IMG/VR virus record: IMGVR_UViG_2529293139_000011
Strand: one strand, 5' to 3'
From: a virus
Taxonomy: Duplodnaviria > Heunggongvirae > Uroviricota > Caudoviricetes
Length of the DNA stretch: 40,519 bases
This document shows, one piece after another, positions 30,306 to 35,861 of the stretch. The notes below the pieces were generated by a model that ran no database searches, was not told the DNA's origin, and worked only from the letters and a program-made list of their open reading frames with translations. The stretch's first letter is position 1, and the number at the start of each line of letters is the position of its first letter. The position numbers and the translations under genes are program-made.

Positions 30306-31123
30306 GCAATCCCCCTGTCTGCAAACTTCCCTTCACGTACTCCCGTTAACGAATCTTCCCTCAGCAGGTAATCAAAATCTGCCGTCCAGCCCGTGTCGTT
30401 GTCTCCGAAGTAAAACGGCTTGGCCTGATGCACAAACGCCCTGACATACGCTCTGAAACCGTCCACGTTTGGCGTTTTCAGTTGCGGGATGATTTTCTTC
30501 AGGCGACGTTTGCGTTTCTCGTTGACCGCAACAGCGTGCGGCAGTCTGTCACCGACTTCGGTGTTGTAGGCGTTCAGGAAGGATTCGTAGTCGATGCGTT
30601 CTGCCTTGCGACGTCCAGGTTTAACCTGCCCATCGCCGCCCCCGTTAGGGGGTAAGGGGGTATTTGTATTTATTGTCTTTTGTATATTGTCTTTTGTGTT
30701 TAGCTGACTTGGCTTATACCCATTAGCCGACTTGGCTAATGTTTTATTAGCTGTTTTAGCTAATGTTAAGCTGTCCTGGCTAATCCACTGAGAAACCACC
30801 TTGTTCACTCCGATTTTCACGCCATCAGCAATGAGGAATTTACGCTCAATAAGCTGGCGCTTGGCAGCGCAAACATGAGTGTGATGAATACCTGTCATGG
30901 CTGCTATCTGCGTGTTTGTGAGTCGATCCATCGGCTTATTGAATCCGTATGTCTTGCGCATGATAGCGAGCATCACCTTCAACTGCCGGACAGTTAAATC
31001 AGCCATCAGCAGACTGTCGGTAATCTCGTTAGCAACGCGCATGAAACCATCTTCGGTATCTGCCACGCGATGCTCCACGACCTCCAGTTGAGGCCTGTAA
31101 TCAGCTAACTTAACGACGCCCAT
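30302..31123 (-). CDS. Replication initiation protein (lambda O / P22 gene 18-like)
   Basis: 273-aa ORF with an N-terminal DNA-binding domain; gene contains internal iterons and an AT-rich tract, as lambda O contains ori. Confidence 0.75.
30659..30787. repeat. Putative origin of replication inside the O-like gene: four iterons (approx. AGCTGNNTTGGCTAAT) at 30701-30787 plus an AT-rich tract at 30659-30700
   Basis: tagctgacttggcttatacc / ttagccgacttggctaatg / ttagctgttttagctaatg / ttaagctgtcctggctaatcc next to tatttgtatttattgtcttttgtatattgtcttttgtg. Confidence 0.6.
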
Positions 31124-31271
31124 GTTTCACTCCTGCTTTGGCTAGTCTGTAAACACCAACAAGGCGCTCTGCGAACGCCCTGTTATTTGCTGCGGCTACC
31201 ACTAATCCCTCAGGTGAATCAGGGTGTCGAATCTCTTCTTTTTCCTGGTATTTCTTACGACGTTTTGTCAT
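31110..31271 (-). CDS. Small basic hypothetical protein between cII and the O-like gene
   Basis: 53-aa ORF from ATG 31271 (MTKRRKKYQEKEEIRHPDSPEGL...) with AGGAG 5 nt upstream. Confidence 0.35.
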   Translation of the reverse strand: MTKRRKKYQEKEEIRHPDSPEGLVVAAANNRAFAERLVGVYRLAKAGVKHGRR

Positions 31272-31305
31272 AATTACTCCTGTGGATTGATCCAGTCTTT
31301 CTACA

Positions 31306-31584
31306 TCAGGCCTCAAAACTGTTGCAGCAGTCTTGAGGCTTTTCTTTTGTCAGCACCTTGGCTACTTTCTTTGCCAGTTCCGCCAATTCCTCGTCTTCAA
31401 CACCCCACTCCAGCACAGCCAGAAGCATGGCCATCTTTGGGATAAAACTGTCTTTCCATCGCGAAATTTGCGATTCATTAATCCCTAACGCGTCGGCAAC
31501 CTTTCGCTGACCACGTACAGCAATTCGATTTAGGATGTTGCTTGTAATTGCATTCGCTTTCTTGCGAGTACTTGTAAGTTGCAT
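31306..31584 (-). CDS. cII: CII-like transcriptional activator
   Basis: ORF 31306-31671; start placed at ATG 31584 with AAGGAAA upstream; the motif SQISRWK...IPKMAMLLAVLEWGV matches lambda CII. Confidence 0.75.
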   Translation of the reverse strand: MQLTSTRKKANAITSNILNRIAVRGQRKVADALGINESQISRWKDSFIPKMAMLLAVLEWGVEDEELAELAKKVAKVLTKEKPQDCCNSFEA

Positions 31585-31641
31585 ATGTAAGTATTTCCTT
31601 AACAAATAAGAAGTTATGCGCATCAACTTATGCGCGTTGTA

Positions 31642-31686
31642 TTCCCGCATTTCGGCGGGAATGAGGACCATGACTGTTAAAGAGCG
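31642..31686 (-). promoter_or_regulatory. nutR (boxA CGCTCTTTAACA at 31675-31686; boxB hairpin at 31642-31661)
   Basis: Minus-strand boxA consensus followed by the hairpin TCCCGCCGAAATGCGGGA, between cro and cII; the same boxB sequence occurs in nutL. Confidence 0.7.
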
Positions 31687-31692
31687 GTGTTA

Positions 31693-31887
31693 CTATTTGT
31701 TTTTCTTGTTGCTTGGGAAAGGACGAACTTCCTCTCCAATCACACTGCCATCAGGCTTTACCGTAACCATGATGTTACGTCCTGCCAGAATGGCCTTGCT
31801 GATAGCGCACTGGATTACACCAAAGTCACTGGCTGCTTTAGCCTGTCCATGGATTTTGGCGTAATCGGCAAGTGTCATTCGAATCAT
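31693..31887 (-). CDS. cro: Cro repressor
   Basis: ORF 31693-31893; ATG at 31887 with GGAG 7 nt upstream; [62 protein letters not shown] resembles lambda Cro. Confidence 0.85.
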
Positions 31888-31893
31888 ATGCAC

Positions 31894-31993
31894 TCTCCGT
31901 TATTAACCATGAACAAAGAATACTACAGGTATTCAAAGCAATCAATACTCAGGGTATTTTTAGTTTAAGTACCTTAGCTATTAGAATTAAGCT
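31894..31993. promoter_or_regulatory. OR / pR / pRM region with two palindromic operators: aatactacaggtatt (31919-31933) and aatactcagggtatt (31944-31958)
   Basis: AATAC-N5-GTATT palindromes between divergent cro and cI; candidate pR on the minus strand (TTGATT-17-TATTCT); TAGAAT just before the cI ATG suggests a leaderless cI transcript. Confidence 0.7.
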
Positions 31994-32710
31994 ATGGAAA
32001 ATAAAAAATCACTGACGACAGAACAGCTCGAAGACGCTAAGCGGCTTAAGGCTTTGTATGAGTCAAAAAAGAAAGAATTGGGAATAACCCAATACTCAAT
32101 CGCTGATGAACTGGGTATCACCCAAGGAGCGGTAGGGCATTATCTTAATGGCAGAAACGCGCTAAACGTTGAGGTTGCATCTGGTTTTGCACGATTGTTG
32201 CAAGTCTCAATTGCTGATTTTAGCCAGTCAATTGCTGCCAAGGTTGCAGAACAGGCAGAAAGCCTTAAGAGCGATGCCAACGTAAGGTATGCAGGGGAAT
32301 ACAGAGCAGGAAAGAGGTATCCGGTGTTAAGCAGTATCCAGGCTGGCTCGTGGTGTGAAGCATGCGAACCATACACCATTAAAGACATAGATGTTTGGCT
32401 TGAGTCTGACGCGCATATTCAAGGTAATGCGTTCTGGCTTAAAGTGGAAGGTGATTCAATGACGGCACCGGTTGGGTTAAGCATTCCAGAGGGAACATTC
32501 GTTCTTTTCGATACCGGAAGGGAGGCGATCAACGGCAGCTTGGTCATAGCAAAACTTTCTGACTCTAACGAAGCAACATTCAAGAAGCTGATAATCGACG
32601 GCGGAAATAAATACCTCAAGGGACTTAACCCTGCATGGCCTCTCGTGCCAATCAATGGAAACTGCAAGATTATAGGCGTTGCAATTGAGACAAAACTAAG
32701 GCTGGTTTGA
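31994..32710 (+). CDS. cI: CI-type prophage repressor (HTH plus S24 LexA-like autopeptidase domain)
   Basis: 238-aa ORF with an N-terminal HTH (ITQYSIADELGITQGAVGHYLNG) and C-terminal S24 motifs (GDSMTAP ... KKLI); divergent from cro. Confidence 0.85.
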   Translation: MENKKSLTTEQLEDAKRLKALYESKKKELGITQYSIADELGITQGAVGHYLNGRNALNVEVASGFARLLQVSIADFSQSIAAKVAEQAESLKSDANVRYAGEYRAGKRYPVLSSIQAGSWCEACEPYTIKDIDVWLESDAHIQGNAFWLKVEGDSMTAPVGLSIPEGTFVLFDTGREAINGSLVIAKLSDSNEATFKKLIIDGGNKYLKGLNPAWPLVPINGNCKIIGVAIETKLRLV

Positions 32711-32727
32711 TCACGCAAGGGGCGCTT

Positions 32728-33096
32728 ATGGTTGGAACCGCTATAGCAAGCTTTTTTGGGATGTTGGCAATCTCGACAATTTACGGCTTAGCGCATGCTT
32801 TTATTGCGAAATCTCTATCAGAAAAAATAAGCCAGGCTTGGGCGCATAGATCAGCTCGTTTCATGATTCTGGTGATCATGGCAATACAAGGGATATCTGC
32901 ATTTATCCTCTATGGATCAAGCTTATACCTATTGTATCAAGGCGCGACATTTACGCCTTACACCAGTGATTACGGAACTCTATACGATGGTAGTGAAGAC
33001 ATCTCTATGGCTTGGATCGTCTTTGGCTTATCTATGGCCGTGTCTGTTGTAGCAGACATCATTAAGGTAATTCTCGTCTTAACCTTCGCTGACTAA
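32728..33096 (+). CDS. Small polytopic membrane protein co-transcribed downstream of cI (rexB position); candidate exclusion / abortive-infection protein
   Basis: ORF 32707-33096 with a TTG first codon; start placed at ATG 32728 with AAGGGG upstream; ~4 predicted TM helices; no recognisable similarity to lambda RexB. Confidence 0.5.
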   Translation: MVGTAIASFFGMLAISTIYGLAHAFIAKSLSEKISQAWAHRSARFMILVIMAIQGISAFILYGSSLYLLYQGATFTPYTSDYGTLYDGSEDISMAWIVFGLSMAVSVVADIIKVILVLTFAD

Positions 33097-33227
33097 CTCA
33101 TAATCCCGGCAGCAATAGCTATCGGGATCCACTTCACATATCCCGCATAAAAAGCACTGAACAAGCAGACACCGAAAAAAATAAATATCCTTTGTATTCA
33201 TTTGTTTATCATTATTTCATCAAAAAT

Positions 33228-33268
33228 AAATACCTTGGGTATTTACACAATAAAATACCTACAGTATT
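33228..33268. promoter_or_regulatory. OL / pL region with two palindromic operators: aataccttgggtatt (33228-33242) and aatacctacagtatt (33254-33268)
   Basis: Same AATAC-N5-GTATT consensus and spacing as at OR; candidate pL TTTACA-17-TATTCT overlaps the operators; upstream of nutL and N. Confidence 0.65.
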
Positions 33269-33315
33269 CTTTAGCCATCAGCAGGACGCTGGTAGCCAAA
33301 CGGAACAGATTGGCA

Positions 33316-33357
33316 GGCTCTTTAACATTGATGGGATTGTCCCGCCGAAATGCGGGA
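33316..33357 (+). promoter_or_regulatory. nutL (boxA GGCTCTTTAACA at 33316-33327; boxB hairpin TCCCGCCGAAATGCGGGA at 33340-33357)
   Basis: boxA-like sequence followed by a hairpin identical to the nutR boxB, upstream of N. Confidence 0.7.
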
Positions 33358-33464
33358 ACCAAAGAGTAGTTGGCTTTGGGGTGACGTGAAGTGCAGCTGC
33401 ACGACGGCAACCGGAAGATAAGCACCCGGCGCGTCACCGCCAAAGTCAATCATCGGAGGTCAAC

Positions 33465-33770
33465 ATGACAGTAGTCATTACATATCTGGCTGACGATAAC
33501 GCCAGAAATCGCCGCAGAGCACGCAGACAGGCTCAACGTGAACAGGCAATGCAAGAACAGCGACTGGCGCGAAAGATTGCGCTAAAGCTCTCTGGTTGCG
33601 TCAGAGCAGATAAAGCAGCATCACTCGGAAGCCTTCGCTGCAAGAAGGCAGAAGAAATCGAGCGTAAACAGAATCGTATTTACTACAGCAAGCCACGCAG
33701 TGAAATGGGTGTGACTTGCTCAGGCCGCCAGAAGCGACGCGGAAAATCAATTCCAGCTTATTACGATTGA
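33465..33770 (+). CDS. N: N-type antitermination protein
   Basis: 101-aa ORF with an N-terminal arginine-rich motif (NARNRRRARRQAQREQ) and a C-terminus (ERKQNRIYYSKPRSEMGVTCSGRQKRRGKSIP) resembling lambda N; preceded by GGAGG. Confidence 0.8.
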   Translation: MTVVITYLADDNARNRRRARRQAQREQAMQEQRLARKIALKLSGCVRADKAASLGSLRCKKAEEIERKQNRIYYSKPRSEMGVTCSGRQKRRGKSIPAYYD

Positions 33771-33778
33771 GGTGAGCC

Positions 33779-33943
33779 ATGCTCAAGAAAGTCAAACGCC
33801 GACTTTACAAAGAAGGTAGATATTCATGCCAATTGCCAAAATGCGACACAACAAAATGGAGTGTCGATGATTGGTGTAACTGGATAGATAGATACGGAAC
33901 TTGGTGGGAACGTATTTATTTTCGCGGCAAACCACTTATTTGA
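33779..33943 (+). CDS. Small Cys/Trp-rich hypothetical protein downstream of N
   Basis: 54-aa ORF MLKKVKRRLYKEGRYSCQLPKCDTTKWSVDDWCNWIDRYGTWWERIYFRGKPLI, translated by hand (below the ORF-track size cut-off). Confidence 0.3.
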   Translation: MLKKVKRRLYKEGRYSCQLPKCDTTKWSVDDWCNWIDRYGTWWERIYFRGKPLI

Positions 33944-33951
33944 GGTGAGAT

Positions 33952-34038
33952 ATGGAAGAAGAATTTGAAGAGTTCGAAGAGCATCCGCAGGATGTGATGG
34001 AACAATACCAGGACTATCCGTATGACTACGACTATTGA
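33952..34038 (+). CDS. Very small, highly acidic hypothetical peptide
   Basis: 28-aa ORF MEEEFEEFEEHPQDVMEQYQDYPYDYDY with GAGGTGAG upstream. Confidence 0.25.
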   Translation: MEEEFEEFEEHPQDVMEQYQDYPYDYDY

Positions 34039-34222
34039 TAAGAATCAATGGTGTGGACAATTCAAACGATGCAATGGATGCAAGTTGCAATCGGAATGCA
34101 TGGTTAAGCCTGAAGAAATGTTTCCTGTAATGGAAGATGGGAAATATGTCGATAAATGGGCAATACGAACGACGGCAATGATTGCCAGAGAACTTGGTAA
34201 ACTGAACAACAAGGCTGCCTGA
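34022..34222 (+). CDS. Small Cys-rich hypothetical protein
   Basis: 66-aa ORF with CGQFKRCNGCKLQSEC; early-left operon. Confidence 0.4.
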   Translation: MTTTIDKNQWCGQFKRCNGCKLQSECMVKPEEMFPVMEDGKYVDKWAIRTTAMIARELGKLNNKAA

Positions 34223-34261
34223 TGGTGGCCTTTATTTTTGGCATAAACAACAGAGGCTAAC

Positions 34262-34558
34262 ATGGAATTTAAAGGTACTGAAGGTAAGTGGGAAATAATG
34301 ATGGATGGCGATGAGATTAAAATCATCCAGGCAGACTCTCTTGAAAATGGCGCAGGCTGGCGTTCGTATATTGCAATCTGTGAGGAAGTTCAATGCATTG
34401 AAGATGCCAATCTAATAGCGGCAGCACCTGACCTTCTCGAAGCACTTCAGTTATTACTTAAGCAATCCAAAAATAGAACAACGACAACATATCCAGAATG
34501 GTATGGAGCTGTTAATAAAGGTTTTGCAGCAATCATCAAGGCTCTGGGAGGTGAGTAA
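34262..34558 (+). CDS. Hypothetical protein
   Basis: 98-aa ORF in the early-left operon. Confidence 0.45.
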   Translation: MEFKGTEGKWEIMMDGDEIKIIQADSLENGAGWRSYIAICEEVQCIEDANLIAAAPDLLEALQLLLKQSKNRTTTTYPEWYGAVNKGFAAIIKALGGE

Positions 34559-34758
34559 TGTGCGAGTTTTACGAAGCAGATATCAAACGCCCAGAAATGG
34601 CAAGTGATGCGACATTACGTGATTACTTCGCGGCAAAGGCTATGCAAGCAATGATTAGCAATCCATCGATTATCGATAATGATTCTGATGGAGCTGTTAA
34701 TTATGCAGCAAGCGCTGCATATAAGTTTGCAGACGCAATGCTCAAAGCTCGCGAATAA
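34558..34758 (+). CDS. Hypothetical protein
   Basis: 66-aa ORF preceded by GGTGAG; its start overlaps the previous stop. Confidence 0.4.
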   Translation: MCEFYEADIKRPEMASDATLRDYFAAKAMQAMISNPSIIDNDSDGAVNYAASAAYKFADAMLKARE

Positions 34759-34791: not shown

Positions 34792-34852
34792 GGAGCAATG
34801 TCGCTCGTAACTAAACAGGAGCCGACTTGTTCTGGTTATTTGAAATCTTCTT

Positions 34853-34880
34853 TGCCCTCCAGTGTGAGGGCAATTTTTTT
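34853..34880 (+). terminator. Intrinsic terminator in the early-left operon (TGCCCTC-cagtgt-GAGGGCA followed by ATTTTTTT)
   Basis: 7-bp GC stem plus T-run about 12 nt upstream of the next gene's RBS. Confidence 0.6.
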
Positions 34881-34892
34881 GACGGAGGATAT

Positions 34893-35861
34893 ATGAGTGA
34901 AGTAACAGATTTAGTTGTTATTGAAAAAGCAAATGCAATGACTGTATTTCAGTCTGCCGACCAGATTGAAGAAATCCTTCAAAAGGTTGAACGTGAAGTT
35001 ATGTCCTTTGTGCCTGATATCACAACGGCAAAGGGCAGAAAGGAGATCGCTTCTCTGGCGTATAAAGTTGCGCAGACGAAAACATATCTCGATGGTCTTG
35101 GCAAAGACCTTGTTGCTGAACTGAAGGAAATTCCAAAGCTAATTGATGCTAACCGCAAGACAGTGCGTGATCGCCTTGATGAGCTGAAAGCCAAGGCGCG
35201 CCAGCCTCTTACTGATTATGAGGAAGAACAGGCGCGGATTAAAGCCGAAGAAGAAGCTAAGGCAGCAGCTGAAGCTCTCGCAAAGCAAATTGAGTCTGAC
35301 CATGAAATAGCTATTTTGATGGATCGCGAATTTGACCGCCAAAGAGAAGAGGCAAGACTCAAAGCGGAGCAGGAAAAGCGAGAGCATGAAGAACGATTAA
35401 AAAGAGAAGCTGAAGAGAAAGCCAGAGCAGAAGCCGAAGCAAAGGCAAAAGCCGAAATTGAAGCAGCAGCAAGGCGAGAAGCAGAAGCTAAGGCCGCAGC
35501 GGAACGTGCAGAGCGTGAACGCATTGAAGCCGAGCAACGAGCACAGCGCGAAGCAAAAGAGGCAGCAGAACGAGCTGAAAGAGAAAAGCAGGCAGCAATT
35601 GAAGCAGAACGCAGAAAAGCACAGGAGGAGGCTGAACGAATCCGGCGCGAGGCTGAAGCAAAAGAGCAAGCCAGAATAGCAGAAGAAAAAAGAATCAAGG
35701 AAGAAGAAGAGCGTAGAGCAAAGGATAAAGCTCACCGGAAAGAAGTAAATAACAAAATACTTGCTGACCTTATCAAGGTTGGCGCATCAGAAGATGTTGC
35801 TAAAAATATCATAACAGCCATCGTAAAAGGCGAAGTATTCGCAACAAAAATAACCTACTAA
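34893..35861 (+). CDS. Coiled-coil protein with a long low-complexity Ala/Glu/Lys/Arg repeat region; function unknown
   Basis: ORF 34827-35861; start placed at ATG 34893 after GGAGG; central ~180 aa are EAEAKAKAE / RREAEAK-type repeats. Confidence 0.6.
   Translation: MSEVTDLVVIEKANAMTVFQSADQIEEILQKVEREVMSFVPDITTAKGRKEIASLAYKVAQTKTYLDGLGKDLVAELKEIPKLIDANRKTVRDRLDELKAKARQPLTDYEEEQARIKAEEEAKAAAEALAKQIESDHEIAILMDREFDRQREEARLKAEQEKREHEERLKREAEEKARAEAEAKAKAEIEAAARREAEAKAAAERAERERIEAEQRAQREAKEAAERAEREKQAAIEAERRKAQEEAERIRREAEAKEQARIAEEKRIKEEEERRAKDKAHRKEVNNKILADLIKVGASEDVAKNIITAIVKGEVFATKITY

Follow-up and report, generated by a model that had tools for sequence, protein, structure and literature searches.

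Background

The closest described relative of the system studied here is the immunity region of phage HK620. Its source is GenBank AF335538 (Clark, Inwood, Cloutier and Dhillon 2001, J Mol Biol 311:657), and this record annotates OR1-3, OL1-3, pR, pL, pRE, tR1, tIMM, nutL, and nutR, the operators and nut sites having stood there since 2001. In the present study, we examined the immunity region and the flanking N-utilisation (nut) sites of a virus (Caudoviricetes) held in IMG/VR as IMGVR_UViG_2529293139_000011. The whole stretch of 40,519 nucleotides is referred to as the window, and positions are those of the window.

The gene order between 31306 and 33770 is that of a lambdoid immunity region, reversed relative to the usual lambda map: replication genes and cII (minus strand), cro (minus), a 106-bp intergenic region, cI (plus), a small hydrophobic open reading frame (plus), 368 bp of non-coding DNA, and N (plus). 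Outside this region, the window represents a P22-like (Lederbergvirus) genome, its virion genes being of the Sf6/HK620 type. We conclude with high confidence that the region is a switch of lambda architecture belonging to the HK620 immunity group, and that a separate N/nut module flanks it. The immunity type has already been described and annotated in HK620, and hence is not new. The anatomy of the sequence, its homologies, and the co-inheritance of CI with the operators and of the N motif with boxB were observed directly.

Assignment to the HK620 immunity group

Direct alignment of positions 31262-33656 with HK620 gave 98.2% identity. A megablast search with 31300-33800 found 16 phage records at 97.8-98.9% identity and at least 80% coverage (HK620, HK140, HK630, mEpX2, HZ41, HF4s, 611R6, phi296, phi367, and two Stx2c phages), four of the phages each standing under two accessions. 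The immunity region was present, with at least 80% coverage, in 146 of 5426 complete Escherichia coli genomes (about 2.7%). Judged by their sequences, CI, Cro, and the operators are essentially those of HK620, and the window is assigned to immHK620. An earlier sequence-only reading of this DNA had proposed comparing CI and the operators with the known lambdoid immunity groups; this comparison led to HK620, with identical operators and a CI that is 99.6% identical. The sites annotated in HK620 fall in the window as follows.

31641-31686, HK620 nutR
31918-31934, HK620 OR1
31943-31959, HK620 OR2
31967-31983, HK620 OR3
33228-33244, HK620 OL2
33253-33269, HK620 OL1
33316-33357, HK620 nutL

Operators and promoters

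The palindrome AATACNNNNNGTATT (AATAC-N5-GTATT) occurs exactly four times in the 40.5-kb window (31919-31933, 31944-31958, 33229-33243, and 33254-33268), where 0.03 copies are expected; none of 100 shuffles reached four. One pair lies between cro and cI and the other about 200 bp upstream of N, and the start-to-start spacing is 25 bp in both pairs. These coordinates bear out the sequence-only reading, which had noticed four palindromes of one consensus, paired in these two places at a spacing of about 25 bp. The operators (no strand assigned) and the promoters are listed below.

31919-31933, OR1, AATACTACAGGTATT: perfect site, identical to HK620 OR1; overlaps the PR -10; half-sites invariant in relatives
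31944-31958, OR2, AATACTCAGGGTATT: perfect site, identical to HK620 OR2; 2-bp overlap with the PR -35; abuts the PRM -35
31968-31982, OR3, AGTACCTTAGCTATT: 8 of 10 half-site positions, identical to HK620 OR3; inside PRM
33184-33198, proposed OL3, AATATCCTTTGTATT: 9 of 10 half-site positions; 45 bp from OL2
33229-33243, OL2, AATACCTTGGGTATT: perfect site, identical to HK620 OL2; 2-bp overlap with the PL -35
33254-33268, OL1, AATACCTACAGTATT: perfect site, identical to HK620 OL1; overlaps the PL spacer and -10
31910-31945, minus strand, PR: -35 TTGATT (31945-31940), 17-bp spacer, -10 TATTCT (31922-31917); read directly, maps to HK620 pR
31959-31987, plus strand, PRM (inferred): weak -35 TTTAGT, -10 TAGAAT (31982-31987); read directly
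33242-33270, plus strand, PL: -35 TTTACA (33242-33247), 17-bp spacer, -10 TATTCT (33265-33270); found by the promoter scanner, within HK620 pL

The 45-nt block from OR1 to OR2 is an inverted copy of OL2-OL1, 73% complementary according to the repeat finder. Between the divergent cI and cro genes there are three dyad-symmetric sites (starts at 31919, 31944, and 31968; spacings of 25 and 24 bp), and, measured from the cI ATG to the centre of each operator, the distances are 19, 43, and 68 bp, compared with 19, 42, and 66 bp in lambda.

The promoters are predictions, PR and PRM having been read by eye. PR matches 8 of 12 consensus positions, just below the threshold of the scanner, and PL is the sole promoter-like match in 31200-33900. 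PR and PL are built alike: the proximal operator spans the spacer and most of the -10, and 2 bp of the -35 are shared with the second operator. The operators overlap the predicted PR, PL, and PRM, and PR and PRM as read here agree with the HK620 annotation. On the cI side, the sequence GTATTAGAAT (GCTATTAGAAT in the window) continues from OR3, with the cI ATG 6-7 nt further on, and is conserved in the window and in phages OS31 and Eho49 (see below). Only 7 nt separate the end of the conserved PRM -10 from the cI ATG, and a Shine-Dalgarno sequence is lacking, so that the cI mRNA is probably leaderless, as in lambda.

CI, Cro, and their fit to the operators

31994-32710, plus strand, cI: repressor, 238 amino acid residues (Pfam HTH_3 and Peptidase_S24)
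31693-31887, minus strand, cro: 64 amino acid residues, lambda Cro fold family (Pfam Cro, E = 4e-26)

The CI sequence is 100% identical to those of mEpX2, HZ41, and HF4s, and its best relative of solved structure is lambda repressor (3bdn, E = 3e-52). Identity is 43% to lambda CI, 40% to P22, 52% to 434, and 41% to the phi21 (DE3) repressor. The Ala117-Gly118 cleavage site and the residues Ser155 and Lys197 do not vary among the aligned lambda and P22-type repressors; because the cleavage site and the Ser/Lys dyad are kept, RecA-dependent induction of the prophage by CI autocleavage is expected. Cro is 61% identical to lambda Cro, and its closest solved structures are those of lambda Cro (1cop and 6cro).

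The consensus of the lambda operator half-site is TATCAC. In lambda 17-bp numbering the half-site of the window reads n1-A2-A3-T4-A5-C6, so that A2, A5, and C6 are kept, whereas lambda has TC at positions 3-4 and the window has AT. The recognition helices differ as well: that of CI reads QGAVGHY here and QSGVGAL in lambda, and that of Cro reads QCAISK here and QSAINK in lambda. The roles of CI residues Gln33, Gln44, Ser45, and Asn55 in lambda are known from the 1LMB complex; the CI of the window keeps Gln33, Gln44, and Asn55 (lambda numbering) and has Gly in place of Ser45. For Cro, an 'evolutionary code' was proposed by Hall, Lefevre and Cordes (2005), which, as summarised in PMC6649833, relates Gln at helix position H1 to A at +2, Ala at H3 to A at +5, and Lys at H6 to C at +6. 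Applied in this summarised form, the code predicts A +2, A +5, and C +6 for the helix QCAISK, and the half-site nAATAC agrees. The two base pairs that differ from lambda could plausibly be read by H2 and H5, the helix residues that differ as well.

By homology with lambda, CI dimers would bind the 15-bp core AATAC-N5-GTATT. CI on OR1/OR2 and OL1/OL2 would occlude PR and PL, and CI at OR2, which abuts the weak PRM -35, would probably activate the leaderless transcript of cI and the hkaS gene that follows it. The weaker OR3 inside PRM would serve CI autorepression and the shut-off of cI by Cro, with OL3, most likely at 33184-33198, as the third left site. RecA-stimulated autocleavage of CI would then induce the prophage.

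Operators in related phages and in the population

The next-closest CI sequences are those of Serratia phage OS31 (71%), Erwinia phage Eho49 (65%), Fostie (62%), and Midgardsormr38 (58%), and also those of Cronobacter ENT39118 and Enterobacter ENT1. In OS31, the three OR sites are spaced 25 and 24 bp apart and the three OL sites 45 and 25 bp apart; all six follow the AATAC-N5-GTATT consensus, and the one at the OL3 position scores 8/10. Eho49 likewise has three and three sites of this consensus and spacing, five of them perfect. In the case of Fostie (positions 1500-2660), whose CI has a near-identical recognition helix, three OR sites follow a shifted consensus, A(G/C)TAC-N5-GTA(C/T)T; the OL of Fostie was not cleanly resolvable, and its left operon contains no recognisable N gene. 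Fostie may represent a neighbouring specificity within the same operator family. ENT1 and Midgardsormr38 have TATAC-N5-GTATA-like sites, and in ENT39118 no sites of the AATAC-N5-GTATT family were found.

For a population test, IMG/VR was scanned for the boxB core, and 31 distinct HK620-class sequences were aligned, with the orientation fixed by cI. The variable positions were distributed as follows.

Half-sites of the six operators (both third sites included): 0 of 60
Central N5 spacers: 4 of 30
Other non-coding positions: 30 of 235

The half-sites are depleted of variation relative to the other non-coding positions (Fisher p = 0.0007) and to the central spacers (p = 0.011), and all polymorphisms within operators fall in the non-contacted centre. 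The four perfect operators occurred only with a CI of 99.6-100% identity (30 of 30 IMG/VR contigs); they were absent from 49 contigs that have the same nut sites but encode other repressors (33-52% identical or undetectable).

The nut sites and the N protein

31642-31686, minus strand, nutR: boxA CGCTCTTTAACA (31675-31686), 14-nt spacer, boxB UCCCGC-CGAAAU-GCGGGA (31642-31660); maps to HK620 nutR
33316-33357, plus strand, nutL: boxA GGCTCTTTAACA (33316-33327), 12-nt spacer, boxB UCCCGC-CGAAAU-GCGGGA (33340-33357); maps exactly to HK620 nutL
31618-31635, minus strand, hairpin GCGCAU-AAGUUG-AUGCGC: candidate tR1 by inferred function, just downstream of nutR
33465-33770, plus strand, N: mosaic antiterminator, 101 amino acid residues (PHROG 271 'anti-termination protein N-like', E = 4e-36)

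The two boxA sequences differ at the first base and have GCTCTTTAACA in common; the nutR boxA is invariant in the 31 aligned sequences. The 19-nt boxB, TCCCGCCGAAATGCGGGAA, is identical in nutL and nutR, which the repeat finder reports as a 100% complementary inverted repeat. Both copies fold into a G+C-rich stem of 6-8 bp with the loop CGAAAU; an alternative reading is a GAAA tetraloop with a C·U mismatch as its closing pair. The sequence-only reading had described a boxA and an identical boxB hairpin on both sides, and these were found at its coordinates; the span 31894-33357 given for its observation does not include nutR. Minus-strand RNA of 31590-31660 folds with z = -3.3, and HK620 tR1, at 31635-31641, directly adjoins the candidate tR1 hairpin. 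In a permissive Rfam scan of 30800-34600, the only match was a chance one (SCARNA7, E = 0.64), with no curated family over the nut sites.

N is the first gene of the PL operon, 195 bp past the PL -10, and its arginine-rich motif reads NARNRRRARRQAQR. Residues 1-32 carry the HK620-type motif DNARNRRRARRQAQREQ, and residues 1-64 are 98% identical to HK620 N, the C-terminus of which is unrelated. Compared with phi21 N, the protein is 65% identical overall and 96% identical over residues 37-90, and its C-terminal tail (...GRQKRRGKSIPAYYD) resembles Sf6 gene 37. No Pfam family matched N at E <= 0.01. H-19B N, named as similar in the HK620 record, was considered as a relative and set aside, since its motif (RSRRRER) is different and places it in another specificity group. 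The transcripts from PL and PR would each carry boxA and the identical boxB hairpin; the arginine-rich motif of N would bind boxB, and, with host Nus factors at boxA, RNA polymerase would resist tR1 and the downstream terminators.

The association of this motif with this hairpin extends beyond the HK620 group. An inverted boxB pair was found in 79 IMG/VR contigs, 73 of which encode the N motif of the window at 82-100% identity. The boxB-boxB distance falls into 12 classes, and only the class of about 1696 bp (30 contigs) has this CI and four perfect operators; the other distances are about 1155, 1231, 1249, 1282, 1396, 1740, 2009, 2291, 2862, 2968, and 2990 bp. The boxB pair and the N motif flank at least 10 other immunity cassettes, several of them without a detectable homologue of the window CI. 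Eho49 encodes the motif DNARNRRRA(K/R)R together with the same boxB loop, while the rest of its N is unrelated. As the N motif and boxB occur with other repressors and the perfect operators only with window-type CI, immunity specificity and N specificity thus assort as two separate modules, and each is inherited together with the nucleic-acid target that belongs to it.

The third operators and alternative explanations

The sequence-only reading, which found only two operators per side to be clearly identifiable, was too cautious: a degenerate OR3 (31968-31982) and an OL3 candidate (33184-33198) exist. OR3 lies 24 bp from OR2, with its centre 19 bp from the cI ATG, the same distance as lambda OR3, and it is invariant across the 31 distinct immHK620 sequences. 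A third OR site at the same 24-bp spacing is also found in OS31, Eho49, and Fostie. The support for OR3 comes from position and conservation, not from match quality, because 8/10 sites are common by chance. The proposed OL3 is the sole site in the whole window with a single mismatch to the operator. According to the repeat finder, it belongs to one family (D1) with OL2, OL1, and OR2, and it shares 18 of 22 bases with OL2, the AAAAATA flank included. Its distance of 45 bp corresponds to 24 bp plus two helical turns, hence the helical phase to OL2 would be preserved. The half-sites of this candidate are invariant in the 31 sequences.

Several points weigh against the picture of a tripartite, lambda-like switch. 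Repressor binding, cooperativity, PRM activation, and antitermination are all predicted from homology, PRM and the leaderless start are likewise predictions, and the searchable literature yielded no experiment on CI, Cro, the operators, boxB, or N of the HK620/mEpX2 type. The third sites are the part most exposed to doubt. About 16 sites that match as well as OR3, which has two mismatches, are expected by chance per window; OL3 lies at an unusual distance, and the GenBank annotation locates it elsewhere. Restricted to OL3, the polymorphism test has no power and does not reach significance (p = 0.26). The OL3 site of OS31 is only 8/15 identical in sequence, and its 45-bp spacing is not independent evidence, because the OL region of OS31 is homologous DNA. 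One could therefore suppose that repressor binding is confined to the two perfect operators of each side, the degenerate third sites being fortuitous. The placement of OR3 as in lambda, its invariance, and its counterparts in OS31, Eho49, and Fostie argue against such a bipartite switch, as do the three perfect OL sites of Eho49 and the 22-nt repeat shared by the OL3 candidate and OL2, and we consider it quite improbable. If a third left site exists, it could also lie where the HK620 record has it. The annotated OL3 maps to 33206-33222 (TTATCATTATTTCATCA), and its spacing of 23 bp from OL2 would mirror the tight OL array of lambda; 33184-33198, 22 bp farther from PL and within the annotated tIMM, would then be part of a terminator and no operator. 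An A+T-only hairpin (AAATAAATA...TATTCATTT) can indeed be drawn by direct reading over 33179-33209, although the terminator scanner made no call there. The annotated OL3 matches the consensus poorly: among the 15-mers starting at 33195-33228, none scores above 5 of 10 half-site positions. Furthermore, 3 of its 17 positions are polymorphic among close relatives, whereas the half-sites of 33184-33198 do not vary. We regard the annotated position as improbable; OL3 is most likely 33184-33198, a placement that we rate as probable but not proven, and the HK620 record probably has OL3 about 22 bp out of place.

Doubt of another kind concerns the paired hairpins, which could be terminators or RNase III processing sites that flank the immunity region by chance. 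They are G+C-rich stem-loops for which the searchable literature holds no experiment, and the fold of nutL as a whole is no more stable than that of shuffled sequences (z = -0.5), the hairpin itself being predicted in both contexts. The invariance of boxB in the alignment of 31 sequences follows by construction, since boxB was the search pattern. Neither of the two hairpins has a U-run after it, though, and the terminator scanner did not call either one. Each lies 12-14 nt past a boxA closely like that of phi21, the nutL hairpin occupies the exact slot of the phi21 boxB in DNA that is otherwise near-identical, and one particular arginine-rich motif of N accompanies the hairpin in different genera and in at least 10 immunity modules. 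An origin as chance terminators or processing sites is hardly credible beside this evidence, and we interpret the hairpins as the boxB elements of N-utilisation sites.

Neighbouring genes

31306-31584, minus strand, cII: activator establishing lysogeny (Pfam Phage_CII, E = 9e-45), annotated as cII in HK620
32728-33096, plus strand, hkaS homologue: small hydrophobic protein, 122 amino acid residues (PHROG 6534, function unassigned, E = 5e-79), named hkaS in HK620

The hkaS homologue directly follows cI in the same orientation, in the position of the lambda rexAB genes, and is presumably expressed in lysogens. No match to Pfam (E <= 0.01) or PADLOC was found for hkaS; it could have a superinfection-exclusion or lysogenic-conversion function. 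Just past its stop codon there is a strong hairpin without a U-tail (AUCCCGG-CAGCAAUAGCUA-UCGGGAU, 33103-33129, plus strand), which may serve to stabilise or process the transcript, or may mark where the cI-hkaS transcript really ends. A DUF5484 mini-gene (33779-33943, plus strand) lies directly downstream of N. At 34827-35861 (plus strand) a 344-residue protein is encoded; a long, highly charged stretch of it, in which Glu, Ala, Lys, and Arg abound, is probably a coiled coil.

Comparison with known systems

The phage is assigned to the HK620 immunity group and to the HK620-type N/nut group, so that homoimmunity with HK620, HK140, HK630, mEpX2, and similar prophages is expected. The value of this assignment beyond the existing annotation is small. 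What our analysis adds is both third operators, with the probable correction of HK620 OL3, the support for the operator consensus from polymorphism and comparison, and the N motif and boxB as a portable unit.

The sequences of OR1-OR3, OL1-OL2, PR, PL, nutL, and nutR are identical in HK620 and the window, the gene order cII-cro-cI-hkaS-N is shared, and the interval from cro to nutL is 98% identical. The two differ in N, which diverges beyond codon 64, in scattered single bases, and in the position of OL3.

With lambda, the window shares homologous CI and Cro proteins, a tripartite OR at near-equal distances, the central operator base pair, a leaderless-type PRM, and the S24 cleavage residues. 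In contrast, the distance between OL3 and OL2 is 20 bp in lambda and 45 bp here, and rexAB in lambda stands where hkaS stands here. Sf6 has the P22-like virion module and the immunity layout in common with the window, but its operators (ACAARNNNNRTTGT) are of the 434 type, and its N motif and boxB (GCCCUGAAGAAGGGC) are of the lambda type. Lambda and Sf6 share the N motif MDAQTRRRERRAEKQAQW and a boxB with a GAAAA/GAAGA loop, both of which differ from those of the window. The N of Salmonella phage L (P22-like) aligns with that of the window only over residues 47-101, P22 itself not being among the rows listed. The suggestion of the sequence-only reading that immunity may differ from that of lambda, P22, and Sf6 is upheld by the low CI identities to lambda and P22 given above and by the 434-type operators of Sf6 (434 CI being 52% identical), and the phage is probably heteroimmune to lambda, P22, 434/Sf6, and phi21. 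Its further suggestion of a distinct N specificity also gains support, since neither lambda nor Sf6 nor phi21 has the boxB or the N motif of the window.

The phi21 comparison (imm21 DNA from phage DE3) is the most informative for N. From about +1 through boxA, 55 of 56 leader positions are identical, N codons 34-90 are about 98% identical, and the boxB hairpins of both phages have a six-base loop. The hairpins themselves are unlike: UCUCAA-CCUAACC-GUUGAGA (nutL) and UCACCU-CUAACC-GGGUGA (nutR) in phi21, and UCCCGC-CGAAAU-GCGGGA in the window. Codons 1-33 are unrelated, residues 1-32 reading DNARNRRRARRQAQ in the window and GTAKSRYKARRAEL in phi21. As only boxB and N codons 1-33 are replaced relative to phi21, the exchange took in both the RNA hairpin and the peptide expected to read it, a clean natural case of coupled replacement. 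The searchable literature contained no structural or biochemical study of the HK620-type N motif-boxB pair. The pair is evolutionarily portable, being present in E. coli and Erwinia phages whose N C-termini are unrelated. We lean slightly toward the view that it is an RNA-peptide recognition pair orthogonal to the lambda, P22, and phi21 pairs; if the orthogonality holds, the HK620-type pair could serve as another orthogonal tethering pair beside these known ones.

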